The notes: generated by a model not told the origin, from the letters alone. Shown: positions 19,282-56,874, numbered from the stretch's first letter. The stretch: 64,000 bases of DNA from Candidatus Marinacidobacterales bacterium (GCA_965219415.1 OZ244742.1:1440001-1504000), one strand, 5' to 3'. Made by a program: numbers and translations.

Positions 19282-20316
19282 TCATGTCATTTCCGGGAGG
19301 TGGGCAGCGAGCACCCGTCTCAAACCATCCCACGCCGTCCGCTCAGAATGCCGTGCCAGATTGGACCTCACCATCTCGAGCGTATAAGGAACGTAGCGCT
19401 CATAGAACGACTTGCCCCTGACCGCAATCTGATTGCCGAACGTGCCAAGCGCTTTCAAATTTCGTTGCAATGCCGTCAAATCGAATTCTTCCTCGAGGCT
19501 CCTGCGATCGGTCGACGTGGCTAGAAGGAACTGTTCTTTGAACTCCTCGACAAACTCCGCTTCCAGTTCCACGTACGAATCCCGCAGCAGCGAGACCAAA
19601 TCATAACTTACCGGGCCCATACGCGCGTCCTGAAAATCGATCACCACCAGGTCGCTCCCCACGAGAAGGAGGTTCCGAGAATGATAATCACGGTGACAAA
19701 GAACACGCGGGCGAGCGGCAAGCTCGGTGGCGATGTTCCGGAAAGCGCTGTCCAGCGCCTCCAGCTCGGGGGCGCCGAGCAAGACCTTGCGGAACCCCTC
19801 GAGAAAATGCTTCCTAAAGAAAGATAGCTCCCAATGGAGCTTGTTTTGGTCGAAAGCCAATCCGTAGGGGAGATACTTGGTGCTTTCTAAAGCCACCCCG
19901 CGCTCTTGAACACGCGCCAGAATGCCGATCGACTGCCGATAGAGACTCTTCTTCGTCTTGGTGTCGGCATTTTCCACCACCGTCTGGAGGAGCTCGTCGC
20001 CACAATCCTCCAACAGCAAAATGCCTTCCGGGCCAGAGACATCATGTATCTTTGGAACGCGCACCGGCATCTCTTGGAAGAGCCGAGCCACGTTCAAGAA
20101 AGGCTCGCGCTCCGGGTCGAAGGGCTCTGGCAGCAGCGCGAGCACCATGGTCTGCAGCCCCGAACCACCGGATAGGTCCACTCGGTAGTAACTGCGTGTC
20201 GAGGCATCCCCGGCAAGAGCCGTTACCGAACCCACCGGAAGACCTTCTTTATTTCGACGACCCAGGTAGCGAACGATCCTGGGATCGATGGATTGGTCTG
20301 CGGGGTCTATCGACAT
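19282..20316 (-). CDS. amgK: APH-family phosphotransferase, probable anomeric MurNAc/GlcNAc kinase
   Basis: [27 protein letters not shown] and [10 protein letters not shown] motifs; coupled to a nucleotidyltransferase gene. Confidence 0.75.
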
Positions 20317-21404
20317 CAAACCTTGATTTCCGCCACCACGCAGTCTCCAACGACTTCCCGGGCTCGGATCGCGGCCCGTTCCGACTGGAGGCGCACCATA
20401 ACCTTCCCGACGGTACTCGTGGAGGCGGCCAAAGATACGTCACTCGCTATTACGCATTTGCGAACCAGTGCGTCTTCGGAAACCGTGACCCGGTCCCAGA
20501 GCACCGCGCTTTGTATCCTTGCGCCGCGCTCCACGACGCAGTCCGCACCGAGAATCGTTGTGCCGGAGAAATGGGCCCCCGGATCGACCCGAGTGCCAGG
20601 ACCGACTAGTACGGTGGTCCCCGGAGGCGAGCCGGCGGGCGGCTCGATGGATTGACTCTTGAACAAACCCTTCTCCACTAACTGCTCGCAGGCATTCAGG
20701 TACCGTTCTGGCGTCCCGATATCGAACCAAGTCGTATCGGCAACGTAACCAAAGACCGAGCCTTCGGCGATGAGCGTCGGGAGTAGGTCCACCTCGAGCC
20801 GGGCGAAGCGGCCTCGGTGCAGATGCTCGAAAACGGAGGGCTCTAGCACCCAAACCCCGGCGAACATGAGAGGCGAGGCAGAAGGGTCCGTTTTGTGACT
20901 CCTTTGGCCGATCGAAATAACGCGGCCGTCCTCTGCGATGCCCAACTCCGTGTAATCGCTACGTGAAGGCTTGGGACGCAAGAGCAAAGTAGCCGTCGCA
21001 TTCTTGCCACGATGCCAATCGATCAGTCCACCTAAGTCGACGTCGACGATCGTGTCTCCGTTGAGGACCACGAAGCTCCCTCCCGCGAGAAGCTCCTCGG
21101 CCTGCTTGAGTCCCCCCGCTGTGCCGAGAAGCTCCGCCTCTCGAGAATAATGGAGGGAGAAATCCTGGCGCTCGTCCATAGCCTCCAGCACTTCGACGAT
21201 GCTCTCGGGGTGGTGGTGGAGGTTGACGATCACTTCGCGAATGCCCGCCTCGCGAAGTAGCTCCATCGCAAACTCAATCGGGGTGGCTCCCAGGAGAGGG
21301 ATCGCCGGTTTCGCCCAATAAACGGTCAGCGGCCTCAAACGCCGCCCCTCCCCTGCCGCGAGCACCATGGCCATGGCCTTCACCGCTCTCGTCGGCGGCG
21401 TCAT
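20316..21404 (-). CDS. murU: NDP-sugar nucleotidyltransferase, MurU-like, with hexapeptide-repeat tail
   Basis: AMVLAAGEGRRLRPLT, LGTAGG, NGD and WFDIGTPE motifs; adjacent to the amgK-like gene; exact start uncertain. Confidence 0.65.
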   Translation of the reverse strand: MTPPTRAVKAMAMVLAAGEGRRLRPLTVYWAKPAIPLLGATPIEFAMELLREAGIREVIVNLHHHPESIVEVLEAMDERQDFSLHYSREAELLGTAGGLKQAEELLAGGSFVVLNGDTIVDVDLGGLIDWHRGKNATATLLLRPKPSRSDYTELGIAEDGRVISIGQRSHKTDPSASPLMFAGVWVLEPSVFEHLHRGRFARLEVDLLPTLIAEGSVFGYVADTTWFDIGTPERYLNACEQLVEKGLFKSQSIEPPAGSPPGTTVLVGPGTRVDPGAHFSGTTILGADCVVERGARIQSAVLWDRVTVSEDALVRKCVIASDVSLAASTSTVGKVMVRLQSERAAIRAREVVGDCVVAEIKV

Positions 21405-35466: not shown

Positions 35467-35584
35467 TGTGCAAGAACCTGAACGATTCTAACAGAGTCTC
35501 GAGGTAAGGCGGCAAGTCCTTGTTTCGTCGTTTTTGACAATCTGGCGGAATCGAAGGATCTTTGGTTCGGAGGTTGGATTGGAC

Positions 35585-36469
35585 ATGACCGCTTCTCGGA
35601 AGAGCGCACCTTTGACTTTCGTCTTATTGATGAGCATCGGCTATTCGGTCACACCGCCGCCGCTCCTCGCCGCCTTACCCCTCGCCTCCCCAACTGCGCA
35701 GGCGACGATCCCGGCCAGAACCTTCACCGGCCCGGACGGGAACCCCCTGCCCTTCGAGAACGACGACGAGATGATGAAATTTCTCAAAACAGCCAAGGTG
35801 ACGAAACGGTCTGACATTGGTACAGGGATCAATCGCTTCAAGAAATTGACGCTTAAGAAGGACGGCGTGCAAGCGCATGCGATCTTCCGTGATGCCGACG
35901 TGACGGAGCACAACATCCGGGTAGGAGATCGGCGCTACCGCGTTTTCCGCGACAGCTACCTCTTCGAATGCGCCTCTTACGATCTGGGCCAGTTGCTCGG
36001 AATTACCAAGATACCGCCGGTCGTGCTGCGGCGCCTCGGTCGGACCGAGGGCAGCCTCCAGCTATGGATCGAAGACGTTCGAGACGAAAAACACGAGGCC
36101 TTCGCGCCACCGTCCGCCCTCGCTTGGGCGCGGCAGGTCCAAGAAATGCGCTTGTTCGATAACCTCATCTTCAACGTGGATCGGAACCCGGGAAACATCC
36201 TCGTGACTCACGACTACACGTTGATCTTGATCGATCAAACGCGAGGATTTCAAGAGGTCGCCGCTCTTCTCGAACCAGAGGGCGTCTCTCACGTGAAACG
36301 GGCGACCTGGGACAAGCTACAGAGTGTCTCCGAATCGGAGCTCCGCGACGTGGTCAGACCGTACCTGACCGTTGGGGAGCTCAACGCGCTAGTTGCGCGG
36401 TGGAAGCTGATGGTTCAGCGTTTCGAAGAGTTGATAGAGAACCGGAGCGAGGAGCTCGTCGTCTATTAG
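35585..36469 (+). CDS. Exported PI3/4-kinase/HipA-like fold protein
   Basis: Signal peptide; GSLQLW hinge, FDNLIFNVDRNPGN catalytic-loop-like motif, LIDQ. Confidence 0.6.
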   Translation: MTASRKSAPLTFVLLMSIGYSVTPPPLLAALPLASPTAQATIPARTFTGPDGNPLPFENDDEMMKFLKTAKVTKRSDIGTGINRFKKLTLKKDGVQAHAIFRDADVTEHNIRVGDRRYRVFRDSYLFECASYDLGQLLGITKIPPVVLRRLGRTEGSLQLWIEDVRDEKHEAFAPPSALAWARQVQEMRLFDNLIFNVDRNPGNILVTHDYTLILIDQTRGFQEVAALLEPEGVSHVKRATWDKLQSVSESELRDVVRPYLTVGELNALVARWKLMVQRFEELIENRSEELVVY

Positions 36470-36516: not shown

Positions 36517-37524
36517 CTACGGTGAGAAAACCAAGCGAACGAGCGGGAATCCCGCTGTACGAACGAAGCGGATCTTGCCGCGATTGCGATAGAAAAGAAC
36601 CCCCTCCACACCGAATCGCCTCCACAGGTCGAGCGCACCGTCCGGCCCTACAACAAAACCGGCGGTCGACAAAGCATCGACCGTCATCGCTTCTCCTAGG
36701 TTGCCGACAACGGTCGCCGACACGGAATCCTTCACCGGCCATCCGGTACGTGGGTCGATGATGTGTGACAACCAGACGCCATCCTCCTCGAACCCTTGCT
36801 CGTCGCCTGCCGATGTCGAAACGCAACCTTCTTCGATCTGGAGCTTGACGCGGGGGGCGTTTCGAGGGAAGAATATCGCCCCGGTCGGCGCATAGCCAAA
36901 AAGAGCAACGCTGCTCTCCCCGAGGTCGACCATCGCCCGTTGAGCCCCGGCCGCCCTGAGGTTGGCGAGCGCCTTGTCCACCGCGTATCCCTTGGTGAGT
37001 CCTCCCAAATCGATCTCAACTCCATCCGCCGCGAGCTCGACCGATGACGTAGTCGGATCGAGGCGAATCTGCCGAAACCCCACCCGAGTGTGAGCGTTTG
37101 CGAGCATGATCCGCGCCGGAACCTCACCCCCTCCACGATAAAAGCCCCACATCCTTACGACGGAACCAATGGTGGGATCGAAGGCGCCGCCCGATCGATT
37201 CGCGACACGAATCGCCTCGCTCAGGACGTCGTAGGTCGAATCAGAAAGCGGAAAGGGAGTATTGGAGGGCTCCCGGTTCAACCGATTCAACTCACTGTCC
37301 TCGCGGTAGAGGCTCATGAGTCGGTCGACCGATTCTAGCTCTCTGTAGGCGAGGGCGATGGCCGCATCCAGCGCGGGCTCCTCGAGTCCGCATGCCTCGA
37401 TGCGCGCAACCGTGCCCATGACGTAGAAAGCCTGCTCGCGGCATTGGGGCGGGTCGGGGGGTGGGTCGAGCGACGGGTTGGCCGCGATCGCCCCGACCAT
37501 CGCAAGCCAGGAAACAATCGACAC
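36517..37524 (-). CDS. apbE: FAD:protein FMN transferase (flavinyl transferase)
   Basis: VMGT, GAFDPT, DLGGLTKGYAVD, HIIDPRTG and DALSTA motifs; N-terminal signal. Confidence 0.92.
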   Translation of the reverse strand: MSIVSWLAMVGAIAANPSLDPPPDPPQCREQAFYVMGTVARIEACGLEEPALDAAIALAYRELESVDRLMSLYREDSELNRLNREPSNTPFPLSDSTYDVLSEAIRVANRSGGAFDPTIGSVVRMWGFYRGGGEVPARIMLANAHTRVGFRQIRLDPTTSSVELAADGVEIDLGGLTKGYAVDKALANLRAAGAQRAMVDLGESSVALFGYAPTGAIFFPRNAPRVKLQIEEGCVSTSAGDEQGFEEDGVWLSHIIDPRTGWPVKDSVSATVVGNLGEAMTVDALSTAGFVVGPDGALDLWRRFGVEGVLFYRNRGKIRFVRTAGFPLVRLVFSP

Positions 37525-37546
37525 GTGCGCGCCTATCGCGACCGAA

Positions 37547-38131
37547 CTAACGGGAAGGGTCTTTCGTTCCGACCGAAACGAGGCGATCCTCGGCGCCGGT
37601 TTTCTTAGGTATCAAAATCTCGCGAGTCATTGCCCGCCCGTTGTGTCCGTTGGGAGGCGAGCCACTCCAGAGATTCCATGCGACGACAACGAGGAGCGTG
37701 CCGAGCAGTGCCTCGAGAGCAAAGAACCCCACGATCTTGACCGGAGCAAGAGAGGGGCCGACGAATCGCACCAGCCAACCTCCCGACTCAGAGGCAATCG
37801 CCGCACCGAAGGTGGCCCAAACGAAAAAGAGCTTCAGACCCTTTCCAAAAGGCGAAAAGATCACCAAGTGCGTCAACACGAGCAGCACCATCGCCATCAT
37901 GGCGAGGTGAGCGTGGGTGACTTCGAGCATCGACCCCATGGTTCGCGGCGGTAGGAACTCCTCCTCCGAACCATTGTAATAACTGACGACGGATTCCGGA
38001 CTCAGTCCCATTTTCGATAAGTATAGAACGAGGTTCGTTACCCAAAACCCCACAAGCAACAGCAACGTCAGCCCGATGGTCAATCGCATCAAAGGGTGGT
38101 TTTGGAAACCGCCGGATTCCATGTATTTCAC
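37547..38131 (-). CDS. Four-TM membrane protein with His-rich helix (candidate cytochrome b-like)
   Basis: Four hydrophobic segments; LEVTHAHLAMMAMVLLVLTHL; GTGA overlap with the FMN-binding gene. Confidence 0.6.
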   Translation of the reverse strand: MKYMESGGFQNHPLMRLTIGLTLLLLVGFWVTNLVLYLSKMGLSPESVVSYYNGSEEEFLPPRTMGSMLEVTHAHLAMMAMVLLVLTHLVIFSPFGKGLKLFFVWATFGAAIASESGGWLVRFVGPSLAPVKIVGFFALEALLGTLLVVVAWNLWSGSPPNGHNGRAMTREILIPKKTGAEDRLVSVGTKDPSR

Positions 38132-38694
38132 GACCCGCCCTCTCCTCCGAGAACTGTGTAAAGGGCCAGCGCACGACGGACGCTTGCCGCCAGAGCTCTC
38201 ACCGTCAGTGTGGCACCAGTGACCCGCACGAGATGGCGTCCCACGATCATGTCATCGGTCAATTCCTGATCATTCATTCGGTCCAGCCAACTCTGCCTAA
38301 CCTTGTAGTCCTCCGGTTCGTAAAACGCGAGAATCTCCACTCGACGCACCGTACCGTCTGGCTTCACCAAGACCATGACCGTCTCCGTGGTGGTGCGCAC
38401 GACGTGGGTGTCGAAGAATGCGGCTCCCGCGGGTCGGCCGTCTTCATCGACTCCGACGTAGTAGTGGACGATCTTGGAATCGAGCCGCGCTCGTGCCAAG
38501 CCTTCGATCTCCTTCGCCTGCTCGTCGGTGAGAAAAACGGACTTCCGTTCGATCGCTCCACCTGGAAACGCCTCCGCCAAAGCCTGCTTCTGCGTCTTAT
38601 AGAGACCACCTCGGAGCTCACCGGGAAGAATGGAAACGATCGCTGCCAATCCCCAGACGAGTCGCGTCTGACGCCAATCCCCGAATCGTTGCAT
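38128..38694 (-). CDS. Exported FMN-binding (flavinylation substrate) protein
   Basis: Signal peptide; VEILAFYEPEDY; VTGATLT matches the [S/T]GA[S/T] flavinylation motif. Confidence 0.8.
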   Translation of the reverse strand: MQRFGDWRQTRLVWGLAAIVSILPGELRGGLYKTQKQALAEAFPGGAIERKSVFLTDEQAKEIEGLARARLDSKIVHYYVGVDEDGRPAGAAFFDTHVVRTTTETVMVLVKPDGTVRRVEILAFYEPEDYKVRQSWLDRMNDQELTDDMIVGRHLVRVTGATLTVRALAASVRRALALYTVLGGEGGS

Positions 38695-38705
38695 TGCGTT
38701 CGACC

Positions 38706-40106
38706 CTAGAATTGATAACCGATTCCGAAGTTCCACTGGTTGGTTCCGGTGCCGGCTCGATTGCGGAAATTCTGGAAATCGAGCTTCAGCACGATGCTGT
38801 AGATCGGTTCCACCTCGAAGCCGAACGTGGTAACGGCTCGGTCGTTTACAGGGTTCCTAAGAAACCCGCCGGGCACCTCCGCTTGTGTGTCGAAGTCCTC
38901 GTAGCGAATGAACGGCGTCAGCGCCCAGGCCGCCCCGGTGTTTCCGAGACCAACGAATTCGTAAGCCCCCTCCAGATACCATCCCCGGAGCTCGGAGCCG
39001 ATCGACGAGGCACCGGTAAGGCCGAGGCTCTGGTTGATGAGCGCCGCTTCGCCGATCGTTCCCATCACGTAGAGTCCTCGGAGCTGTAGCCCCCGGTAGT
39101 TGTACTGACCATGGACATCGAACAGGCTGACCCGCCCGCCAATTGCGCTTCCAGTCAGCAACGTCTCTCCTTGACCCGAGTCACCGACGAAAAAGCTGCC
39201 GCCCACCAGAAAGCCGGGATAGCCGGTGAGATCCAGGCGGCCAGTCCAGCCGAAGTCCTGGGCGATGGATTTCGAGCCCTTTTGCCGACCGCCGCGAAGC
39301 CCGGAGCTGGGAGAGAAACCAGTGCTCGTCAGACCGACGACCACATAGGAGCGATAGGTGAAGGGACCTATGTCACCGAAAATGCCCCCTCCGTTCTCTC
39401 GCCAGGTGGTCGGAATGATGACCCTTTCCACCTGGGGCCGGGTGACTCCGTAGAAGACGGTCGGCTCGTGGAGCTCATTGAGAAAACCCACCGGTATCAA
39501 GACCATCCCGCCGCGAAAATTGAGCTGCGGACGATAGAGGAAGTCGAGGTATGCGAACTCCACCGAGACGACGCCCGACTTGTCGGTAGAGGCATGCTCG
39601 AATTCGATCTCCGAGTTGAAGAGGAATTGATCGTTCCACTTGTAGCCCAGGTAAACGATCGCCCTCAAGAAATCGAACTCATTCAGTGCACCGGAAGCCG
39701 ATCCGTCGTCGCTGTCCGTGGCCGGATTCTGAAAGATGGCCTCACCGTACCCACCGATGGAAGCGCCTCGTTCTACTCCATATATCTTGGAGGCAGATGG
39801 CGCCAAACCATATTGACCCCTTTGGCCCCTTTGACCCTTGCCGGGCTCCTGCTCCTCTTCCGCCACGGCTCCCAACTTCAGCCTCTCGATTTCTTCGCTC
39901 AGGAGTCGGATCTGCCGCTCGAGCTCCGCGAGGCGCTCCTCTTGGGACGGTGGATCCTTCTTCTCTTCCTTCTCTTCCTCTTCTGCCTTCTCGATGGTGA
40001 TGGCCGAGGCGGCCTCTGCCCAAGTGAGCAGGGCGAGTGCGCCCGAAAGAAGAGCGATCCCGAAAACCCTGCGAGTTCTCGGCGGTGTCACACTCTGGGG
40101 TGTCAT
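38706..40106 (-). CDS. Outer-membrane beta-barrel porin with N-terminal coiled coil
   Basis: Signal peptide, ERLAELERQIRLLSEEIERLK coiled coil, IGGYGE...FNSEIEFEHA, amphipathic strands, C-terminal GIGYQF. Confidence 0.8.
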   Translation of the reverse strand: MTPQSVTPPRTRRVFGIALLSGALALLTWAEAASAITIEKAEEEEKEEKKDPPSQEERLAELERQIRLLSEEIERLKLGAVAEEEQEPGKGQRGQRGQYGLAPSASKIYGVERGASIGGYGEAIFQNPATDSDDGSASGALNEFDFLRAIVYLGYKWNDQFLFNSEIEFEHASTDKSGVVSVEFAYLDFLYRPQLNFRGGMVLIPVGFLNELHEPTVFYGVTRPQVERVIIPTTWRENGGGIFGDIGPFTYRSYVVVGLTSTGFSPSSGLRGGRQKGSKSIAQDFGWTGRLDLTGYPGFLVGGSFFVGDSGQGETLLTGSAIGGRVSLFDVHGQYNYRGLQLRGLYVMGTIGEAALINQSLGLTGASSIGSELRGWYLEGAYEFVGLGNTGAAWALTPFIRYEDFDTQAEVPGGFLRNPVNDRAVTTFGFEVEPIYSIVLKLDFQNFRNRAGTGTNQWNFGIGYQF

Positions 40107-40154
40107 GACTCTACCTCCACCGTTGTCTCTTCACGCCGCGGGCCCTTGGGGAAA

Positions 40155-40679
40155 CTAGTGCGAACGGGTGGACGCGTTTTTAACGCCGACCTTGGTCTTA
40201 CGACGGCTACTCTTTTTCTTCGAGCGCCGCTGATTGCACTTTTGGCAAACACCGAATATCTGATGCCGGTGCGAGTCGATGGTGAATCCGTAGGCCTCGG
40301 CAATTTCGTCCTGGAGCGTCTCGATCTCCTGACTCACGAACTCGATGATCGTGCCGCACTCGATGCAGATCATGTGATCGTGATGTGCATGTTTGTAGTG
40401 ATGCTCGAAACGAGTCAGCCCGTCTCGGAGCTCGATCGATTCCGCCAACTGCGCGTCACACAGAAGCTTCAGGGTTCGATAGATTGTGGTGCGACCGATC
40501 TCGCGGTGCTTGCGATGGATAACTCGATGGAGATCGTCGACCGTCATGTGGCCTCCGGTCTCCAAGAAGTACTGGAGGATCACTTCCCGCTGACGGGAGT
40601 GCTTCAGCCCATTGTTTGCGAGATACTCTTCGAGGACACGGAACTCTTCTCGACCGTGGGAGGACTTACTCGGTGTCAT
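40155..40679 (-). CDS. fur: Ferric uptake regulator family protein
   Basis: GLKHSRQRE, IGRTTIYRTL, HHDHMICIECG and GVCQKC motifs. Confidence 0.92.
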   Translation of the reverse strand: MTPSKSSHGREEFRVLEEYLANNGLKHSRQREVILQYFLETGGHMTVDDLHRVIHRKHREIGRTTIYRTLKLLCDAQLAESIELRDGLTRFEHHYKHAHHDHMICIECGTIIEFVSQEIETLQDEIAEAYGFTIDSHRHQIFGVCQKCNQRRSKKKSSRRKTKVGVKNASTRSH

Positions 40680-41391
40680 CCGAGTCGCCTCCTCGCGGGC
40701 CTTCCCGGAGTACGTAAATATCTTCGGCCAACGCCTCTTCGAGCGCCAGTTGCGTCTCGTCGCATTCCAAGACGAACGCGGGCGACCGCTGGTGCAGCTT
40801 CACTTTGACTCCCGGGGTGAAACCGAAAGAAGAAAGCTTATGCAGTCTGGAGTAGTTCTTAGTATTGACATAAGCCACTCGCGCCGTCTCGCCGGTGTGC
40901 ATCTGGTTGGCACTGACCACCACTGCCTCGATGCTACGCCTCGTATCTTGGCAGCATCGTCCTTCGGGAATGGGCCGACCATGAGGGCACTGGCGCGGGT
41001 GGCCGAGCAGCGTACAGATGCTTTCGGTAATGCCGGGGGCAACGAGATGCTCGAACTCGCAAGCGTTGACCTCAATCTCGGGCATCGGCATGCGCAAAAT
41101 GTCGTTCACCAAACGTTCCGCGAGTCGGTGACGTCGAATGATGGCGCGGGCCCTTTCTCGACCGGACTCGGTGAAAACCAGCGAGCCGTCCTTTCGTTCT
41201 TCGATCAACGTTCGCGTCTTGAGCTCTTCGATGAGCTCCTCGGTCAAGGCGACGTCGACGACTTGGGCCAAATCCTCCCGCCGGGTCGCGCCTCGCTCGT
41301 CTCCTGTCCAAAGCGCCTCCAGGACTTCCTCGAGCGCCCGGTGCGGTGGTTGCGGAGAGCGACTGGTCTCGGTCGAGGTTGTGTCGTTCAT
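40666..41391 (-). CDS. DtxR/MntR-like metal-binding protein with C-terminal FeoA domain
   Basis: IIRRHRLAERL, ACEFEH and CPHGRPIP motifs; FeoA-like KLSSFGFTPG...QLAL; ATGA overlap with feoB. Confidence 0.85.
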   Translation of the reverse strand: MNDTTSTETSRSPQPPHRALEEVLEALWTGDERGATRREDLAQVVDVALTEELIEELKTRTLIEERKDGSLVFTESGRERARAIIRRHRLAERLVNDILRMPMPEIEVNACEFEHLVAPGITESICTLLGHPRQCPHGRPIPEGRCCQDTRRSIEAVVVSANQMHTGETARVAYVNTKNYSRLHKLSSFGFTPGVKVKLHQRSPAFVLECDETQLALEEALAEDIYVLREGPRGGDSDDTE

Positions 41392-43421
41392 AGCGGCAAA
41401 CCGGTCCAGCGCAGAAGGAAGTTCACCCCAGTGCCCACCGCGATGGCATAAGGAATGATGAAGCCCACCATGAGCGCGGCCTTGCGAAAATCGAGTTCCT
41501 TGATCATAACCAGGAAGTTCGCAACACAAGGGACGAACAAGGTCATGGTGACCAGAGAGACGATGATCTGCGTGTCATCCATCAAACCTTGGCGGGCCAG
41601 ATCGAATAAGCCTGCCGCACCGTAGTCGCGGCGGAGGAATCCCATCACAAAGGCCTCCCCGGCCTTGGCCGGCAAACCCAATAGACCCACCACCACGGGC
41701 TCCGCGGCCCCCACGATAAACGGCAGGATCGCGAGACGGTCCAAGACAAACAACACCACGGTTCCCAGAACGAATAGCGGTACCGCCTCCCTAAGGAACC
41801 ATCGTACGCGGGACCATGTTTTTCGAGCCAGGTTTCCCCACACCGGAAGTCGCATCGGGGGTAGCTCCACCATGAAGTCCGATCGACTACCGGGTAGGAT
41901 CTTGTCGGCGATCCACCCCACCACCAGAAGCTGCGACAACAAAATGCCGAAAAGAAAAAGTAAGGCGCCGAAGGAGACCCACGCGAGCATACCCAAGACC
42001 ACGCCGAGCTGAGCAGCGCAGGGCACCGCCAGGGCGAGGAGCAACGTAGCGAGAACGCGCTCCTTACGAGTAGACAGAATTCTCGTCGCAAGGGTAGCCA
42101 TGGTGACGCAGCCGAGCCCGAGCACCATCGGTAGCACCGCTTTCCCATTCAATCCCATGAAGCGAAACATTCGATCGGCGAGCACCGAGAGCCGAGGTAG
42201 ATAGCCGCTGTCTTCGAGAAATCCGAACGCCATGAAAAAAGTCGTCACCACCGGCAACACGATGGCCACCGAGTACGTGACGCCCATCGATATCGCACCG
42301 TACGGCCCCACCAAGAGATCATGGATAAAGGGAATCGGAAGGAACCGGTCGACCAGCCAAGTGACTCCCGGTACCAAGTAGGCGCCGAAGATGGTCTCTT
42401 CGACAAAATCCACCGCCGCACCGGCCCCGAAGACTCCTACAAAGTAGTACATAAAGAGCAAGGCGCCGATGAGGATGGGAAAACCAGTCAGCGGCTCTCG
42501 ACACAAGCGGCCGAGCCGATCGGCGAAGGCGGAAACTTCCCCACCTGTCACCTTCCGTAGGGTGCCGACCGTGGAGTCGATCCATTGGCTCCGCTCTTGA
42601 ACGATCGCGGCGGCGGCAGGACGGTGGTGTCTCTGCTGATAGAGCTCTAGAGAATGATTAATGGCGCGAAGCCGCGCGTCGCCGGTGAGTACAGGGAGGG
42701 TACCTTTGACTCCCTCGTCTCGAGACCATAGCCACTCCGCGAAGAGCCCCATGGGTAGTTGGCGGTCGCCATCGCCGCCAGCCGGGACGTTGTCTTTGAG
42801 CTCGGCGATCATCGCTTCCAACTGCGGTGAGGGATTGCGTGGAACCGCGGGTCTCGCGAGCGCCCTCTCCAAATCCACGATCCCGTGTCCTTCCGTCGCC
42901 ACCGTCTCGACCACCGGGATGCCAAATAGTCCACCGAGCGCCGCGAGGTCTACTTCTATGCCACGCTTCCTCGACTCGTCCGCCATATTGAGATCCAGGA
43001 CGGTGGGAAGACCGAGCTCTACAATTTGGATCAATAAAAGGAGGGTCCGGCGAATGTTCTTTGCGTCGGCCACCACCAAGACGATATCGGGACGCTCTGC
43101 GAGCAGAATGTCCCGAGTCACGCGCTCGTCCTCGGACTGCGGGACTAGGGAGTTCACCCCGGGGGTGTCGACGACCTCATAGCGCCTACCGCCGACCTCT
43201 GCGGTACCACGGGCGAGTGCCACGGTGGTCCCGGGGTAATTGGAAACGTAGACGTATTGGCCGGTAAGGCGGTTGAAGATGACGCTCTTGCCGACATTGG
43301 GGTTTCCCACCAACGCGATCTTGGCTTTGGTTGATTGACTTCCTTCGTGACGGGCCGGCGGGGCCTTGGTGGCTAGTTCGGGAAGGGCCGTCGTGTTGAG
43401 GCCGCTAGGCTCGGGTGGCAT
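41388..43421 (-). CDS. feoB: Ferrous iron transporter FeoB
   Basis: GNPNVGKS, NYPGTTV, DTPG and NMAD motifs; membrane domain LEDSGYLPR, GLGC, VPCAAQ, FVPCVA. Confidence 0.96.
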   Translation of the reverse strand: MPPEPSGLNTTALPELATKAPPARHEGSQSTKAKIALVGNPNVGKSVIFNRLTGQYVYVSNYPGTTVALARGTAEVGGRRYEVVDTPGVNSLVPQSEDERVTRDILLAERPDIVLVVADAKNIRRTLLLLIQIVELGLPTVLDLNMADESRKRGIEVDLAALGGLFGIPVVETVATEGHGIVDLERALARPAVPRNPSPQLEAMIAELKDNVPAGGDGDRQLPMGLFAEWLWSRDEGVKGTLPVLTGDARLRAINHSLELYQQRHHRPAAAAIVQERSQWIDSTVGTLRKVTGGEVSAFADRLGRLCREPLTGFPILIGALLFMYYFVGVFGAGAAVDFVEETIFGAYLVPGVTWLVDRFLPIPFIHDLLVGPYGAISMGVTYSVAIVLPVVTTFFMAFGFLEDSGYLPRLSVLADRMFRFMGLNGKAVLPMVLGLGCVTMATLATRILSTRKERVLATLLLALAVPCAAQLGVVLGMLAWVSFGALLFLFGILLSQLLVVGWIADKILPGSRSDFMVELPPMRLPVWGNLARKTWSRVRWFLREAVPLFVLGTVVLFVLDRLAILPFIVGAAEPVVVGLLGLPAKAGEAFVMGFLRRDYGAAGLFDLARQGLMDDTQIIVSLVTMTLFVPCVANFLVMIKELDFRKAALMVGFIIPYAIAVGTGVNFLLRWTGLPL

Positions 43422-43445
43422 TTCGGCGTCCGTCCTGGGTGAAAA

Positions 43446-43502
43446 TGAAAACCGATTTCAACTTACCAGGCCAGTCTACCGGACGTCCCTGGCAAGTGTC
43501 AA
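43446..43502 (-). promoter_or_regulatory. feoB promoter with Fur-box-like operator
   Basis: Minus strand TTGACA-N18-TAGACT (43502-43473); 7-1-7 imperfect palindrome TGAAAAC-C-GATTTCA at 43446-43460. Confidence 0.65.
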
Positions 43503-43620: not shown

Positions 43621-44784
43621 ATGTTACAAGCCGTTCTCCTCGCCGCCGGGAAGTCGACCCGTACCTATCCGCTGACCACGACCCGGCCCAAACCACTGAT
43701 TCCGGTCCTGGGCAAGCCGTTGCTCGAGCACTTGCTCGGACAGCTCCAGGGCCTAGTGGAAGAAGCGATCATCGTGGTCGGTTATCGCGCCGACGCGATT
43801 CACGTTCAGCTCGGCGATCGATTCGGCTCCCTCCCCCTTCGCTACTTGGAACAGCGGGATCAACGGGGGACCGCCGACGCTCTGCTCCAAGCGTCTCCAT
43901 TGATCGAGGACCGCTGCTTGGTCTTGAACGGGGACGATCTTTACCATCGCCACGACTTGCAGGCCTTGTCGAGACATCGGACTGCGATCCTGGTGACACC
44001 GGTACCCGATCCCCAAAACCGAGCCGTCGTGACTGTCGCTGGTGACCAAGTGGCTGACATCGTCGAAAAACCCGCTTCGGCTCCACCCAATTCTTTGGCC
44101 AGTGTCGGGGGGTATGTCATGGAACGGGAGTCTCTGGACAAGCTGCGCGAGATCCAGTTGAGCCCTCGCGGCGAGCTGGAGCTTCCCGATTTCATCAAAC
44201 TCCTGGCACGCTCGTCGGTCGTGCGTTACCACCGCATCGAGAAACTCTGGCTGCCTCTAACCTACGCGTGGGATGTCCTCAGGGTGAGCCTGTTCTTACT
44301 CGAGGACGAGGAACGGGCGGCGGAATTTGGCGTGAGCGTCGAGAGTCCAGGCCAACTAGCCAAAAGACGGGATATCCATCTGGGAACGGGCACAGTCATC
44401 CAGGGCCCGGTCATTATTGCTGCCGGTGTGACGCTGGGGAGTTTTTGTCGGGTGCAAGGCCCAACGGTTATCGCCGAAGGCTCGACGATCGGCGATCGGG
44501 TGGAACTGGAGCGATCGGTCCTTTTCCGCGCTGCCCAGGTCGCGGACTTTGCTCGCGTATCTCATTCGGTCATTGGAGAGCTAACGCGAGTGGGGTCTCA
44601 CACCGAGATACTTTCAAAAGCTCGAGCCGATCAGCCGATCGATGTCGAGCTTGGAGGGAAGATGATCCCCACCCGCCTCGACCGGCTCGGTCTCGTGGCG
44701 GGAGATCACGCAATCGTGCCTGAGGAGTGCGTAATTCCCGCCGGGAGTCTCCTAGCCTCCGGGGAAACCTGGAGCGAATCCTAG
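43621..44784 (+). CDS. GlmU-like sugar-1-phosphate nucleotidyltransferase with left-handed beta-helix
   Basis: LLAAGKSTRTYPLTTTRPKPL, GTADA, NGDDLY and IVEKP motifs plus hexapeptide repeats. Confidence 0.8.
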   Translation: MLQAVLLAAGKSTRTYPLTTTRPKPLIPVLGKPLLEHLLGQLQGLVEEAIIVVGYRADAIHVQLGDRFGSLPLRYLEQRDQRGTADALLQASPLIEDRCLVLNGDDLYHRHDLQALSRHRTAILVTPVPDPQNRAVVTVAGDQVADIVEKPASAPPNSLASVGGYVMERESLDKLREIQLSPRGELELPDFIKLLARSSVVRYHRIEKLWLPLTYAWDVLRVSLFLLEDEERAAEFGVSVESPGQLAKRRDIHLGTGTVIQGPVIIAAGVTLGSFCRVQGPTVIAEGSTIGDRVELERSVLFRAAQVADFARVSHSVIGELTRVGSHTEILSKARADQPIDVELGGKMIPTRLDRLGLVAGDHAIVPEECVIPAGSLLASGETWSES

Positions 44785-51968: not shown

Positions 51969-54086
51969 TCATGAGCTAGCCAAGCGAGATAACCGATTGG
52001 ACCAACGTGTCTCGATAGCCAGCAGCACGAGCGCTGCCGCCAAGAAGTACCACCAAACCCGCTGGCGGCGATCCTGGTCTGCCGGCGTCCATTGTCCGCC
52101 GGTTTGAATGTTCTCCACCTCCCTCGAACTTATCGCAGCCGCCACCTCTTCGGGATCGAGCGAAGACAGATCGGACTCCGTTAGATCCAGATTTACCGCC
52201 AGACTGACCGGATCTCCCGACTGGCTCTTCATGAAGCGAAACTCGTAGAACCCTTGCTCATCCAACGTGAGCAATCGTTGATCCTCTTGCCGGGAGAGAA
52301 AGGACTTCTCACCGGAAGGGGCCACCGCGACCAGCTCCGCCGAAGCCAACGGGCCAGCCCCGGCTTCCTTGACCGCACCGCCCGCATTCGCCAGCTCAAG
52401 TTGTCGGGACAGATCCAATACGTCACCCACCTCGTGCCAGGCGTTCGCCTCCGCGTAACCGGAGGCGTACTTGACCAGCTGATGCACGAACGGCAAGAAC
52501 ACAGGCTGCAATGCCAAATCGTTCCAAAAAGTGTCAAGCGTCGAGCTCCAGAGCAAGACTCTACCGTCCCCTATTCGCTTCTCGGCGAGGGCCACCTCTC
52601 CATCATCGAACCGTGCCAAGATGCCTTGAGGTAAACCTCCCTCGATGTTGCCTCTGAGGGGTCGGTAGCGAAAGAACTTCGCGGGCGAGAAGTCTCCGCT
52701 GCGAGGAGCGCTGAAGAGCTCGAAGACCGGATGGTCATAGTCGATGTAGGCCAACGCACCCCCCCAGTCCGTCGACCTATCCACGGGAGAACCCCATGTC
52801 GCGGGCAGGAGCTCGGCTGCCGATCCGGTCCATCCCTTTGCGCCACTGCGCTCGCCGAGCACCACCACCAGGCCCCCGCCCGAGGCGACGAAATCGCGCA
52901 GCAGCCGAGCCGCCGACGCACTGGGTTCTGGGACATCGTTCAAGAAGACCACCGCGCGGCCGTCCAGGTCCTTTCGCTTCACGCTCGACCCCTTCTTGAC
53001 ATCCATTCGAAAGGCGGGGCGCTCGCCGAGTGCTAGCACTCTGCGAAGGTAGAGGCTTCGCCGTACTCCCACCCCCGGCCCTTCCAAGACCAGAATCGAA
53101 AGTGACTGTCCGGGCCAAATCACGAAGTGGAAGGCGTTGTCCCGGGGTAACGAATCCTCCGCGGTTCGGACCGTCCCCCGAGAAACGCCGTCTGGAAGGG
53201 TGAACGGCTCGAAACGAACCGTGGCTGAGCTATTGGGCGGGAGGCTGATTCTCTGGTCACGAAGCACGCGGCCACCGAGCTCAAGGGAAACCGGAAGCTC
53301 AGAAACCGCCTCTGCACCTTTATTGATGAGACGGGCCGACGCCACCACACGTTCTCTTCCGGAGACCGGCGCGCGCTCTAGCACCACCGTCGTCACCGCC
53401 ACGTTGGACGTTTCGGGTTCGGACAGATCGAAGGTGTTGAGCTTCGTCCCGGGCGGGAGCACGACGTCTTCACGCCCCCCCCAACCCACGCGCTGGAAGT
53501 CGCTAATGAGAGCCACTTCCTTTCTTGGCAACTTCGACTCGTCGAGAAGCTTCTTGGCGAGCTTCAAGGGCGGACCGTAGCGAGTGGTCCCAGACCCCAA
53601 GTTGTGGTTGTCGATGAGAGAGTGGAGCCGGGCTCGGTCCGACGTGGGTTGGTTCGCGGCGATAGCCCGATCCGAAAAGAAAACCAGCGTAGCTCGCTCC
53701 GACGGCTCGATCTCGTTGACGATGCGGTGCGCGGCGTCGACTGCCTGCGTCCAGTGATCCTTGTACCCCATGCTGTAAGACCGATCCACAAGGATGACGA
53801 CTTCCCGGGCGCCGGTCAGCGAAGTGACGGCACGGCGCGGCCGATCGAGGAACGGGCGAGAGAAGGCCATCACTAAGAGCAATAGCGCCAGACATCTCAT
53901 CAGGAAGAGAAGCCAGTGCTTGATCTTCTGACGCCGCACCGAACGATACGGAATCCTGTTCAGGAACATCAGCGATGGAAACTCGACCACTTCCCGTTTC
54001 TCGCGATTCGTGAGGTGGATGATAACGGGGATGGCTAGCGTAATGGCGCCGATCAAGAAGGCCGGAGTTAGAAAGCTCAAGCCCAT
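51969..54086 (-). CDS. BatA-N double-TM plus VWA domain membrane protein
   Basis: FLTP...IPVIIHL...FPSLMFL BatA motif; MIDAS DRSYS, ISDFQ; C-terminal NLDLTESDL plus TM. Confidence 0.85.
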   Translation of the reverse strand: MGLSFLTPAFLIGAITLAIPVIIHLTNREKREVVEFPSLMFLNRIPYRSVRRQKIKHWLLFLMRCLALLLLVMAFSRPFLDRPRRAVTSLTGAREVVILVDRSYSMGYKDHWTQAVDAAHRIVNEIEPSERATLVFFSDRAIAANQPTSDRARLHSLIDNHNLGSGTTRYGPPLKLAKKLLDESKLPRKEVALISDFQRVGWGGREDVVLPPGTKLNTFDLSEPETSNVAVTTVVLERAPVSGRERVVASARLINKGAEAVSELPVSLELGGRVLRDQRISLPPNSSATVRFEPFTLPDGVSRGTVRTAEDSLPRDNAFHFVIWPGQSLSILVLEGPGVGVRRSLYLRRVLALGERPAFRMDVKKGSSVKRKDLDGRAVVFLNDVPEPSASAARLLRDFVASGGGLVVVLGERSGAKGWTGSAAELLPATWGSPVDRSTDWGGALAYIDYDHPVFELFSAPRSGDFSPAKFFRYRPLRGNIEGGLPQGILARFDDGEVALAEKRIGDGRVLLWSSTLDTFWNDLALQPVFLPFVHQLVKYASGYAEANAWHEVGDVLDLSRQLELANAGGAVKEAGAGPLASAELVAVAPSGEKSFLSRQEDQRLLTLDEQGFYEFRFMKSQSGDPVSLAVNLDLTESDLSSLDPEEVAAAISSREVENIQTGGQWTPADQDRRQRVWWYFLAAALVLLAIETRWSNRLSRLASS

Positions 54087-55009
54087 CAGCGCACCCTGCT
54101 CAGACGTTGTCGATTCGACAGGTAATTGAAGAGTGCGAAGTCCAGAGGGGTCGAGGTATCGAAGAGCGCGTAATCGATTCGGTTGTCACCCAGCCAGCGG
54201 GACAGCCGATCGATGTGCTCCGCCACTAATTTTCGATACTGCTCGCGCAAGTACTCGGGTATGACCGGGATCGCCTCTTCGGTTTCCAAGTCGCGGTAGT
54301 TGGCGATTTCGTCGAACGGGAACTCGACCTCGGCGGGGTCCAACACGTGAAAGACAATGAGGTCGTTTCCCTTGTAGCGAAGAACCTTCACCGCATCCAA
54401 CACCGCCTCCGGCTCCTCGTAGAAATCCGAGATGAGAACCATGATGCCGCGCCGACGCACAGCTTCCGCCACCTTGGCCAGCGGTGGGCCCAAGACTCCT
54501 CGCCGGCCGGGCTTCATCCGATCGATCTTATGCAGAACGACCTCGAGGTGCTTAGCAGAGGGAGGTACGAAGTCGACGATATCTTCGTCGAACGTCACCA
54601 ATCCCACTCGGTCTCGTTGCTTGTGCGAGAAATAGGCGAGGCAGGCAGCCAGATAGCGCGCGTAATCCAACTTCGTGACACCGCTACTGCCGAAAGTCAT
54701 GGAGCGAGAGAGATCCACAATGACCGTAAAGCTAGTGTTGGTGTCGGCTTCGAACTCCTTGACGTAAAACCGATCGGCGCGCGCGAAGAGCCGCCAGTCG
54801 ATTCTACGGATATCGTCGCCTGGCATGTAGGCGCGGTGCGCGGCGAAATCGACGGAGCGGCCGACGTAAGGTGATCGATGAAGCCCGCTGATGAACCCTT
54901 CGACCACGGTTCGCGCCAATAGCTCCAGATTGTCGATCTTCCCCAGAATCTTGGGGTCCATAAAACGGGTGGATGCGGTGGGCTCGTTCGTTGCTCCCTT
55001 GCCTCGCAT
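54086..55009 (-). CDS. DUF58 family VWA-like protein
   Basis: GLHRSP...YMPGDDIRRIDW, DLSRS and ISDF motifs. Confidence 0.92.
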   Translation of the reverse strand: MRGKGATNEPTASTRFMDPKILGKIDNLELLARTVVEGFISGLHRSPYVGRSVDFAAHRAYMPGDDIRRIDWRLFARADRFYVKEFEADTNTSFTVIVDLSRSMTFGSSGVTKLDYARYLAACLAYFSHKQRDRVGLVTFDEDIVDFVPPSAKHLEVVLHKIDRMKPGRRGVLGPPLAKVAEAVRRRGIMVLISDFYEEPEAVLDAVKVLRYKGNDLIVFHVLDPAEVEFPFDEIANYRDLETEEAIPVIPEYLREQYRKLVAEHIDRLSRWLGDNRIDYALFDTSTPLDFALFNYLSNRQRLSRVR

Positions 55010-55065
55010 GACGTCTCTCTAGACTCTCCGGGACTCGCTGGTCTTCTCAGGCATTCACTTCGCCC

Positions 55066-56094
55066 CTACATCCGAGACTTCGGCGCGGTTACCGCTTCTA
55101 GCAACTGATCGATGATCTGGCTAGAAGTCACGCGTTCCGAATCGGCGTGGAAGTTGGTCAGCACGCGATGCCGGAACACAGGATGAGCCAGCCCACGAAT
55201 GTCCTCGAAGCTCACATGGTAGCGTCCGTTCATCAGCGCTCTGGCCTTGCCTCCAAGAATGAGGTACTGCGCGGCACGCACGCTGGCACCATACTCCACC
55301 CACTTCTTGATGAACTCCGGTGCGTCGGGTGCTCCGGGCCTACTGATGCGGGCCAGGTTGACTGCATAACGCATGACCGGCTCCGATACCGGGACTTTTC
55401 GCACCAGCTTCTGAAAGGCGGTCATGTCCTTGCCGGTTACCACCGGTTTGAAGTTCAGGTCCTGCGGCGATGTGGTAGCTCTGACCACCTCGAGCTCCTC
55501 ATCTTCCGGTAGATAGTCGATGATGATGTCGAACATGAACCGGTCCAACTGCGCCTCGGGAAGCGGATAGGTTCCCTCGAGCTCGATAGGGTTCTGGGTG
55601 GCAAAGACGTAGAAGGGCTCTTCGAGAGGGTAAGTTCGCCCTTGGATGGTGACCTGGTGCTCTTGCATGGCCTCGAGCAGCGCCGACTGTGTCTTCGGTG
55701 GCGTTCGATTGATCTCGTCCGCTAGCAAGATGTTATTGAAGATCGGCCCGGGCATGAAGACCATCTCCCGACGTCCAATAGCGGGATCTTCCTGAATGAT
55801 GTCCGTGCCCGTGATGTCGGACGGCATCAAATCGGGTGTGAACTGGATGCGCGCGAACTTCAAATCCAAGACCTGCGCCACAGTATGGATGATCAGGGTC
55901 TTGGCCAGTCCGGGCACGCCGGTGATGATGCTGTTGCCACCGACAAAGAGAGAGAGCAACACTTGCTCGACCACTTCATCCTGTCCGACGATCAGCTTTC
56001 GCAGCTCCACCAGGATCTGCTCGCGCGCCTCCTTCAATCGATCCGCCAGAGCAATATCATCCGCCGACTCGAGCTCGACTCTTTCTTCCCCCAT
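55066..56094 (-). CDS. moxR: MoxR family AAA+ ATPase
   Basis: GVPGLAKT, RIQFTPDLMPSD, LADEINR and ATQNPIE.EGTYPLPEAQLDRF motifs. Confidence 0.95.
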   Translation of the reverse strand: MGEERVELESADDIALADRLKEAREQILVELRKLIVGQDEVVEQVLLSLFVGGNSIITGVPGLAKTLIIHTVAQVLDLKFARIQFTPDLMPSDITGTDIIQEDPAIGRREMVFMPGPIFNNILLADEINRTPPKTQSALLEAMQEHQVTIQGRTYPLEEPFYVFATQNPIELEGTYPLPEAQLDRFMFDIIIDYLPEDEELEVVRATTSPQDLNFKPVVTGKDMTAFQKLVRKVPVSEPVMRYAVNLARISRPGAPDAPEFIKKWVEYGASVRAAQYLILGGKARALMNGRYHVSFEDIRGLAHPVFRHRVLTNFHADSERVTSSQIIDQLLEAVTAPKSRM

Positions 56095-56115
56095 CGAGAC
56101 CTTCCCTTTCGTGTT

Positions 56116-56874
56116 TTAGTGTGTCATTCCGTAGATGACGTAATTCACGCCCAACTTGTACGCCTCGTTCGAAAGCTCAATCGGGATCCATTCGGTGTCC
56201 GACCACTCCCAGTAGTCGCCGATGTCGTGGTTGTAATTGGCGATCACCATCAAACGTTTCGATGGATCGTTATCCTCGAAGATGCCGTAGTAAACAGGTT
56301 TGACTTCCGGAAAGTTCGGATGATCGAAGTCCAGCGTCTCGATGTGGAAGAAGGAGTCGAAGATGGGATGGGTAACCTCGAGCTTGACCAACTGGGCACC
56401 GGGCAGCACCTTTCGAATCCCGGCCTCGAAGGAGTCCCAGTGCCACATCATGAAATCGTCGACCACAAGGAAGCCACCTTTTTGGAGGTAACGGCGTAGA
56501 CTGGTCGCCTCCTGGTCGGTGAGCGCCCAGAAACCGACTTCGCATACGTAGGCCCAGGGATATTTGAACAGCTCTGGGTCATCCATGGCCAGAATGTTTC
56601 CACCGTGCGTGTTCGGAGTGAGGTAGGTCAGCTCGCTCAGAATCTTGGTGAAATGACTTTCTCCTCTCGGGTAATCGTGATTCCATTTGAGGTCCAAGCC
56701 CCAGGCGTAAGGCCCCGGTCCCCAGAAGGTAGGAGAAAAGCGCAGCCGGACAAAGGTGAACTGCCCGTTGTAAGGAACGTTGGAATAGGGCACATCGGGA
56801 GCGTCGGCAAGGCCGGCAGAAAGCGGGATGGCGGCCATCACCAGCAAGACAGTGAGTAGCCAGAAGCGTCTCAT
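56116..56874 (-). CDS. Exported DUF4159 domain protein
   Basis: Signal peptide; W..DYP, YLQKGGFLVVDDF, HPIF, DIGDYWE and GVNYVIYGMTH motifs. Confidence 0.85.
   Translation of the reverse strand: MRRFWLLTVLLVMAAIPLSAGLADAPDVPYSNVPYNGQFTFVRLRFSPTFWGPGPYAWGLDLKWNHDYPRGESHFTKILSELTYLTPNTHGGNILAMDDPELFKYPWAYVCEVGFWALTDQEATSLRRYLQKGGFLVVDDFMMWHWDSFEAGIRKVLPGAQLVKLEVTHPIFDSFFHIETLDFDHPNFPEVKPVYYGIFEDNDPSKRLMVIANYNHDIGDYWEWSDTEWIPIELSNEAYKLGVNYVIYGMTH

Follow-up and report, generated by a model that had tools for sequence, protein, structure and literature searches.

A feoB–fur gene cluster that also carries a porin and a flavinylation module in a Candidatus Marinacidobacterales bacterium: a candidate reductive iron-uptake system

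A connection with iron reduction or assimilation has been reported for flavinylated extracytosolic proteins in several settings, and the searchable text of one survey describes PepSY-like, MsrQ-like, DsbD/DUF3570, Nqr/Rnf-like and P19 clusters of this kind, with ‘extracellular electron transfer’ as one of its ten systems (PMC8238504). A second study reports new membrane cytochromes that were found by their position in apbE clusters and provides a precedent for homodimeric haem-binding membrane partners (PMC11334425). The present paper concerns seven co-directional and tightly packed open reading frames (ORFs) on the minus strand (36517-43421) of a 64-kb stretch of DNA from a Candidatus Marinacidobacterales bacterium (GCA_965219415.1 OZ244742.1:1440001-1504000), hereafter called the window, in which feoB, a dtxR-feoA fusion and fur are followed by the genes of a porin, a flavin mononucleotide (FMN)-binding protein of the FMN_bind type, a four-transmembrane (4-TM) protein and ApbE. 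We read this locus as an iron-repressed operon that would merge the sole Feo importer and the sole detected Fur of the genome with a self-contained envelope redox cassette for reductive iron uptake, an interpretation in which our confidence is about evenly balanced.

Searches against Pfam and NCBIfam matched five of the seven operon proteins (FeoB, DtxR-FeoA, Fur, FMN_bind and ApbE; Table 1), and the porin and the 4-TM protein matched zero families in the local copies of these databases at E≤0.01. The components that define a Feo system are present, namely a FeoB equivalog above its cut-off and a FeoA domain in the adjacent gene; the DtxR N-terminal DNA-binding domain family went undetected in the DtxR-FeoA protein at E≤0.01. 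Throughout the 8.05-Mb genome feoB is the sole full-length tblastn match, the one match to the Fur family is the operon fur, dtxR-feoA and a porin of this type each occur once (both in the operon), and apbE occurs three times. For dtxR-feoA and the FMN_bind gene the ORF list gives TTG 41529 and GTG 38736 as starts, with ATG codons at 41391 and 38694 as the alternatives that we adopt. From its ATG, dtxR-feoA overlaps the feoB stop codon as ATGA, fur and dtxR-feoA overlap by 14 nt, and the start of the 4-TM gene overlaps the stop of the FMN_bind gene by 4 nt. The other junctions are gaps of 11, 22 and 48 nt; in the longest, between fur and the porin gene, a GGTGGAGG ribosome-binding site is present and promoter-like matches are absent. 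The operon is bounded by a convergent gene (35534-36469, plus strand) and by a divergent nucleotidyl-transferase gene (43621-44784, plus strand), and we consider it probable that one transcription unit comprises all seven genes, under a conserved operator that resembles a Fur box. The divergent gene, which points away from the feoB promoter region, has a paralogue at 20316-21404 (minus strand), and both encode a left-handed beta-helix tail.

A sequence-only reading of this DNA had named these seven genes in this order, had noted a TGAT flavinylation motif in the FMN-binding protein at 38209-38220 and had set the locus apart from the familiar Rnf, Nqr, NosR and P19/FTR1 contexts. All seven genes were located as it had said, from the ORF list, from Pfam and NCBIfam and, for the porin, from model and fold; the motif occupies codons 38220-38209 exactly; and no match to Rnf, Nqr, NosR, P19 or FTR1 was found among the seven operon proteins or the products of the window's 39 other large ORFs. 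A Rnf/Nqr cluster, together with the genome's second FMN_bind gene, is located ~414 kb away on the same contig.

To define the operator, we aligned the window with the DNA upstream of feoB in three related genomes (L003, L004 and L005) that have the identical seven-gene order; identity to the window's 4-TM protein is 85, 83 and 70%, respectively. The −35 box, GCTTGACA, is invariant in all four, as is, except at two T/G positions, a 22-nt stretch reading TTGAAATCGG(T/G)TTTCATT(T/G)TCA (43461-43440), and the flanking DNA diverges. This stretch is located between the −10 box and the feoB start codon, a position at which a repressor would block transcription, and it is probably a Fur box. The sequence-only reading had claimed one σ70-like promoter with a 7-1-7 Fur-like palindrome here. 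The site is indeed present, and its −35 box and operator are the conserved elements just described; the promoter-like site on its own is at chance level (2 sites in 8 kb compared with 1.9 expected from shuffles), and the palindrome, TGAAATC-G-GTTTTCA (43460-43446), falls short of full symmetry, 6/7 positions of its arms being complementary. A repeat finder run at seed 6 did not report it.

Against the E. coli Fur 19-mer the operator matches at 13/19, and the window has five sites scoring at least 13. The best match of the window to this consensus, GAGAATGATAATCACGGTG (19677-19695, 14/19), falls inside an ORF for an APH-type phosphotransferase (19282-20319, minus strand). In the genome as a whole, six non-self sites match the 22-mer at five or fewer mismatches, and two of them were looked at. 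The first, ATGAAATTGACTTTCACTTTCA (L083 2238-2259; G000:C1:1752637-1752658), has five mismatches and stands directly upstream of a gene for a BFD-like [2Fe-2S] ferredoxin that is followed by a ferritin-like (bacterioferritin) gene. As bfd and bacterioferritin are a typical iron-regulated pair, this site may belong to the same iron regulon as the feoB operator. The second adjoins a SpoIIE-type phosphatase and has no iron link.

Table 1. Genes and control elements of the feoB–apbE locus (positions in the window)
Feature	Coordinates	Strand	Basis
σ70-like promoter: TTGACA (43502-43497), 18-nt spacer, TAGACT (43478-43473)	43473-43502	-	10/12 consensus matches
Conserved operator TTGAAATCGGTTTTCATTTTCA, probable Fur box with imperfect 7-1-7 palindrome	43440-43461	-	four-genome comparison
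feoB, ferrous iron transporter, 677 aa	41388-43421	-	TIGR00437 406.8 bits (cut-off 315.65); FeoB_N, Gate and FeoB_C domains
dtxR-feoA, DtxR-like metal-binding domain fused to FeoA, 241 aa from ATG	40666-41391	-	Fe_dep_repr_C 2.5e-23; FeoA PF04023 6e-12
fur, Fur-family regulator, 174 aa	40155-40679	-	PF01475 (FUR) 3.8e-32
Outer-membrane porin, 466 aa	38706-40106	-	AlphaFold model and Foldseek
Predicted exported FMN_bind protein, 188 aa, TGAT motif	38128-38694	-	PF04205 27.5 bits (cut-off 22), E 5e-6
4-TM inner-membrane protein, 194 aa, Aq_1264_TM (PF27139)	37547-38131	-	PF27139 label on relatives
apbE, FAD:protein FMN transferase, 335 aa	36517-37524	-	PF02424 2.2e-62

The wider distribution of the cassette was examined with one genome per species. 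At least 528 loci carried a relative of the 4-TM protein, and the best 80 of these were analysed for neighbours within 9 kb, with the window proteins as phmmer queries (E≤1e-4); many misses fall at contig ends, and values for the 48 loci with full flanks are accordingly given in brackets. The 80 loci come from Acidobacteriota, Bacteroidota, Ignavibacteria, Elusimicrobia, KSB1, Eisenbacteria and Gemmatimonadota, with single Nitrospira, Caldithrix and Syntrophobacteraceae records. Near the 4-TM gene we found FMN_bind in 77/80 loci (48/48), the porin in 68/80 (45/48) and apbE in 55/80 (34/48); the corresponding values were 21/80 (17/48) for feoB, 17/80 (12/48) for fur, 5/80 (4/48) for dtxR-feoA and 32/80 (23/48) for any of these three. 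The order porin, FMN_bind, 4-TM was kept in 68/68 of the loci in which the porin was found, and even divergent members of the family still keep the three together. The gene for ApbE may precede or follow this trio, and feoB or fur may lie on either side of it. Linkage to feoB, fur or dtxR-feoA extends over at least six phylum-level groups with differing gene orders, and the varying positions of feoB, fur and apbE argue for repeated, independent retention of the iron link. The chance of finding feoB in an 18.5-kb stretch of the host genome is ~0.2%, estimated from one copy per 8.05 Mb. Other neighbours that formed clusters, each in 14 or fewer loci, were a histidine kinase, an ABC ATPase, an SDR protein, a HemN-like protein, deoxyhypusine synthase, an iron–sulfur-assembly protein, a TonB-dependent receptor and FeoA. 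As a separate observation, the locus L105 of genome G006 has two adjacent genes for BrxC/BrxD-like ATPases (12176-15011) ~3 kb downstream of its porin–FMN_bind–4-TM module.

A further line of evidence comes from a scan for Fur boxes upstream of the first module gene at 69 loci, a crude test that used the same E. coli-derived consensus and roughly defined gene starts. In 10 of the 69 loci the best match ranked among the top 5% for that locus, compared with 3.5 expected (binomial 0.002). Clear Fur boxes precede the modules of the Elusimicrobia loci L077 (18/19), L052 (16/19) and L062 (14/19), and boxes like that of the window stand upstream of the modules in three Vicinamibacteria loci that have neither feoB nor fur (L008, L012 and L014). 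We regard these boxes at other modules as supportive only.

Turning to the individual proteins of the cassette, the flavinylation motif is almost completely conserved in 76 FMN_bind homologues from modules, with G in 76/76, A in 72/76, the T/S acceptor in 76/76 and L in 76/76 of the sequences. The N-terminus of the window protein shows, by eye, a hydrophobic stretch after Arg residues, and the protein is predicted to be exported and flavinylated by ApbE. A sequence search with it against solved structures gave 0 matches at E≤10.

The 4-TM protein belongs, on the labels of its relatives, to Aq_1264_TM (PF27139), a family with no assigned function. The precomputed PF27139 label is carried by a 99%-identical cluster and by all 120 homologues among the matches listed, and Atlas clusters at 0.94-0.96 are named Aq_1264_TM; we found no literature that names the family. 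Its model (predicted local distance difference test, pLDDT, 73.6) consists of four long helices. Among 67 sequences of the wider family E70 is conserved in 61, H73 in 57, H75 in 64 and H88 in 63, and H75 and H88 are both on helix 2, 13 residues apart. Haem b bound to this pair is one option for the cofactor. A predicted complex of the 4-TM dimer with two haems scored 0.19 against a mark of 0.42, which gives no verdict either way. Structural comparison led to no assignment of the fold: Foldseek against the PDB returned nothing at E≤0.001, the best hits being MAPEG enzymes at E ~0.1 and a root-mean-square deviation of ~12 Å, and a wide VIA-align search returned generic four-helix bundles with Z≤9.0, in the range expected for helical bundles.

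In a HMMER search of 1.84 billion representatives (clusters at 50% identity) we recovered 602 members of the Aq_1264_TM family at E≤0.001, some of which are fused forms (proteins P0282, P0294, P0300, P0313, P0319, P0311, P0250 and P0244). The fusions comprise 4-TM–ApbE in three proteins, tandem 4-TM–4-TM in at least nine (about 306–339 aa), tandem 4-TM followed by ApbE in one of 600 aa, 4-TM–DtxR_C–FeoA in one and 4-TM–PilZ in one. The fusion to FeoA would tie the 4-TM protein to Feo on the cytoplasmic side of the membrane, the side indicated by its positively charged C-terminal tail.

The 466-aa product of the gene upstream of FMN_bind is, on its model, a porin: AlphaFold predicts 16 strands and a helical coiled-coil neck (pLDDT 75.7), and Foldseek matches the model to OmpT, OprP, OmpU, PorB and OmpF at ~1e-12, so that the name given to it earlier is right. 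A signal peptide can be read by eye at its N-terminus. Across 18 homologues that are 49–84% identical to it, column identity averages 61% and numerous Glu, His and Arg positions are invariant; by this measure its conservation is unusually high for a porin. There was no sequence match to Porin_O_P (PF07396) at E≤0.01, and the protein is not a DUF3570 member, there being no such Pfam match; the TGAS that it contains is absent from the consensus of the 18 sequences. A search of solved structures with the porin profile returned coiled coils only.

The porin also has a life outside the Aq_1264_TM cassette. Among 301 genomes sampled evenly across the phylum it was present at E≤1e-20 in 98 (a count that includes the unpublished G024, G049 and G152), compared with 9 for the 4-TM protein, and on these counts the porin family is much the wider of the two. 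We also took 20 porin loci from genomes that lack the 4-TM family; 18 of them have FMN_bind next after the porin, 16 have an adjacent apbE and 8 an adjacent fur. Eighteen of the 20 also have, following FMN_bind, a gene for a protein of ~150 aa with four helices and a HPWQP motif (L085-L103; alignment A4), whose invariant histidines H51, H69, H118 and H132 are transmembrane. An arrangement of two histidine pairs on two helices is classic for the binding of two haems. This unannotated four-histidine family is absent from all 80 Aq_1264 loci, and homology between it and the 4-TM family was considered and rejected (hhalign probability 0.2%). It is probably a distant relative of cytochrome b561: three of five proteins tested matched PF01292 weakly (E 0.003–0.38, below cut-off), and the precomputed PF01292 label is found on 4 of 120 homologues among the matches listed. 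One of the five matched DUF4405, at E 0.078, and a search of solved structures with the profile gave one row at chance level. Because the sister variant, the commoner of the two, places this unrelated, b561-like protein in the position after FMN_bind, that slot is best read, by analogy, as a membrane electron-entry component filled by two different families.

FeoB imports only Fe2+, and a reductive route to it could be pictured as follows. When iron is scarce, Fur would leave the operator just downstream of the −10 box, and the exported FMN_bind protein would receive FMN from ApbE on its conserved Thr. The 4-TM protein, carrying either haem b on H75/H88 or a metal on E70/H73/H75, might then move electrons from the quinol pool to the flavin, and the flavoprotein would reduce Fe(III) species admitted by the dedicated porin. 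The resulting Fe2+ would be imported by FeoB here and by another importer where FeoB is missing. The 4-TM protein is probably a dimer in this scheme, because tandem-duplicated forms exist and because FezC offers a precedent in the published account (PMC11334425).

The arrangement of the porin gene admits a bolder proposal. If the flavoprotein docked in or under the porin and was fed by the inner-membrane partner, electrons could pass to extracellular or mineral Fe(III) or to diffusible shuttles, with Fe2+ returning through the same pore, and the porin, the flavinylated protein and an exchangeable partner (Aq_1264_TM or b561-like) would make up an undescribed, envelope-spanning and iron-regulated flavin conduit of diderms, an assimilatory analogue of the porin–cytochrome conduits that would reduce ferric iron at or beyond the outer membrane. 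The porin gene is directly upstream of FMN_bind in 68/68 of the porin-bearing loci and in 18/20 of the sister loci, conservation of the porin is well above that of ordinary porins (the 61% identity and the invariant Glu, His and Arg noted above), and two unrelated inner-membrane partners serve one porin–flavoprotein pair. However, the porin lacks a conserved [S/T]GA[S/T] motif and is not a DUF3570 protein, the 16-strand general-porin fold leaves little room for an inserted protein domain, and the complex of porin and flavoprotein is itself a proposal from gene order, so that we think such a conduit unlikely. Were it real, roughly one in three of the phylum's sampled genomes would have it, as would genomes from several other phyla.

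Several observations weigh against reductive iron uptake as the function of the cassette, and they concern its link to iron, its regulator and its membrane partner. The 80 loci are those most like the query and the relatives among them are not independent, and in 48 of the 80 feoB, fur and dtxR-feoA are all missing within 9 kb. No conserved gene for an electron donor was found among the clustered ORFs of these loci. Among 19 RNA runs listed, none contains this DNA. At the level of genomes, FeoB (TIGR00437, E≤1e-30) was detected in 229/301 of the sample and was no commoner with the porin (71/98) than without it (158/203; Fisher p 0.32), and only 3/9 genomes with the 4-TM protein have it. In one whole taxonomic family (4/4 genomes) the module is present and FeoB undetected, and one genome without FeoB has its module behind a GntR regulator and neither an iron gene nor apbE in the vicinity. 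FeoB is thus not obligatory for the module, and the module is not tied to FeoB at the genome level. The best NCBIfam equivalogs of the operon Fur are Fur types, at 110 and 98 bits (cut-offs 200 and 220), ahead of PerR at 67 and Zur at 40; because it reaches no equivalog cut-off, a PerR- or Zur-like role is conceivable. The 4-TM protein has no detectable similarity to a known redox membrane family, with no Pfam or NCBIfam match at E≤0.01 to PepSY-like, MsrQ-like, NapH-like, DsbD, Nqr/Rnf-like or DUF4405 proteins, and E115 is kept in just 22/67 sequences of the wider family. In its tandem forms H75 and H88 survive in the C-terminal half alone, the N-terminal half keeping the E70/H73 positions only, an asymmetry that does not fit a simple symmetric two-haem dimer; on these sequences an asymmetric site or a metal site would fit at least as well as haem.

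A different reading is that of a general periplasmic redox module whose substrate is not iron, being some other metal, an oxidant or an organic acceptor, and which was recruited to iron or Fur-family loci in some lineages. The loci without nearby iron genes, the missing association with FeoB across genomes, the copy behind a GntR regulator, the fusion of a 4-TM protein to PilZ and the position of the Fur-family protein below every equivalog cut-off all favour such a module. The neighbourhoods speak otherwise: the only recurrent functional neighbours are feoB/feoA, fur and dtxR-feoA, the remaining clusters being unrelated housekeeping genes, the iron linkage spans at least six phylum-level groups in differing gene orders, and strong matches to the Fur consensus precede some modules (those of L077 and L052, for example). 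We judge a purpose unconnected with iron to be distinctly unlikely.

A slimmer chance attaches to the idea that the porin is an Fe2+-selective pore, and that the flavoprotein and its partner keep periplasmic iron reduced or scavenge oxidants. It is established that FeoB takes Fe2+, the conserved acidic and His residues of the porin would suit a cation site, and no siderophore or TonB genes are present in the operon; the idea shares the weaknesses of ferric reduction and gives the same expectations for sequence data, by which the two are indistinguishable. Chance adjacency of the seven genes, with a cassette functionally unrelated to Feo and Fur, is scarcely credible, for although the promoter-like match alone is at chance level, the overlaps and short gaps, the seven-gene order in L003–L005, the conserved operator and the repeated linkage contradict it.

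We therefore retain reductive iron uptake, at the even weighting given at the outset, as the preferred account of the operon. As first proposed from the sequence, that account is partly supported: it stands in its gene identities, in the probable single unit, in its separation from the Rnf, Nqr, NosR and P19/FTR1 contexts and in the linkage to iron genes, its porin is a candidate entry for Fe3+ or chelates (as it might be for Fe2+ or a shuttle) and its 4-TM protein a candidate electron carrier. FeoB is not an obligatory outlet, given that three of nine genomes with the 4-TM protein have it. The sequence-only reading had also named a lack of linkage between homologous modules and iron-uptake genes as the finding that would count against it; the linkage at 32/80 loci, the fur gene beside 8/20 sister loci and the 4-TM–DtxR_C–FeoA fusion are the opposite of that.

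Elsewhere in the window, 312-4551 has consecutive genes for an ECF sigma factor, a zf-HC2 anti-sigma factor, a LiaF-like membrane protein and two DUF4097 proteins. A set resembling an aerotolerance operon, with BatA/vWA, DUF58, a MoxR-type AAA ATPase and DUF4159, occupies 51969-56874 and 62954-63829, with a second DUF4159 gene further on.

Systems of this kind are known; the searchable texts do not describe the version in which a porin is dedicated to the module, the partner is Aq_1264_TM or b561-like and the whole is inserted into a feoB–fur operon. FeoB and porin have 0 occurrences each in the main texts of PMC8238504 and PMC11334425, and we found no published description that joins FeoB to ApbE and FMN-binding proteins, or a Fur regulon to FMN-binding proteins, a porin and ApbE, in a search to which the large cluster tables of PMC8238504 were external. 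How Fe2+ is supplied to the diderm inner membrane in oxic or micro-oxic habitats is poorly understood, as is the passage of iron across the outer membrane without TonB receptors. If our reading is true, an iron-regulated porin with a periplasmic flavin reductase would represent a concrete and testable route for iron, and Aq_1264_TM, the four-histidine membrane family and a large family of highly conserved porins would each gain a first function. The catalogue of ApbE-dependent extracytosolic electron-transfer systems would likewise gain a class with its own outer-membrane component.

Among the systems with which the locus may be compared, the MtrCAB porin–cytochrome conduits place multihaem cytochromes inside a 26-strand barrel. 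The likeness is that an outer-membrane barrel is encoded together with periplasmic electron carriers for iron reduction; the difference is that the window has a 16-strand general-porin fold and a flavoprotein. In fold the porin resembles OprP and OprO (Porin_O_P, PF07396), with Foldseek values of 3.7e-12 and 7.2e-11, and a minority of its homologues carry the PF07396 label (1 of 120 among the matches listed, and 19% of one Atlas cluster). In contrast with OprP and OprO, the window porin is below the PF07396 threshold and has a coiled-coil neck and its own invariant set of Glu and His residues. The flavin-based extracellular electron transfer of Listeria, which can reduce ferric iron by means of PplA, FmnB, EetA/EetB and Ndh2, shares with the operon a flavinylated FMN_bind protein, an ApbE-type transferase and small membrane proteins. 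It differs in being Gram-positive and porin-less, in having genes for a dedicated NADH dehydrogenase and for quinone, and in being respiratory and not assimilatory.

The nearest parallels are found within the apbE clusters themselves. The DUF4405 and FezC (flavinylation- or ferrosome-associated) cytochromes b are, like the 4-TM protein, small His-bearing membrane proteins found through such clusters, and their description proposes haem sites formed by homodimerization of FezC, as we propose here (Huang et al. 2024, PMC11334425). The 4-TM protein nevertheless has no sequence relation to them, and its haem binding is a proposal. In the P19/FTR1 clusters, as the searchable text presents them, a flavinylatable periplasmic protein stands beside an iron importer as a proposed assimilatory reductase, which is also our proposal; unlike the module of the window, these clusters have no membrane electron-transfer protein of their own and are mostly Gram-positive (PMC8238504). 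Closest of all in plan are the clusters that combine a PepSY-like protein (VciB/FoxB type) with DUF2271 or FMN_bind and ApbE, in which an ApbE-flavinylated extracytosolic protein likewise accompanies a membrane electron-transfer protein, and for which the same text reports Fur control and colocation with iron transporters, as at this locus (Meheust et al. 2021, PMC8238504). From those clusters as there described, the locus departs in having an Aq_1264_TM membrane partner, a dedicated porin within the unit and FeoB as the linked transporter.

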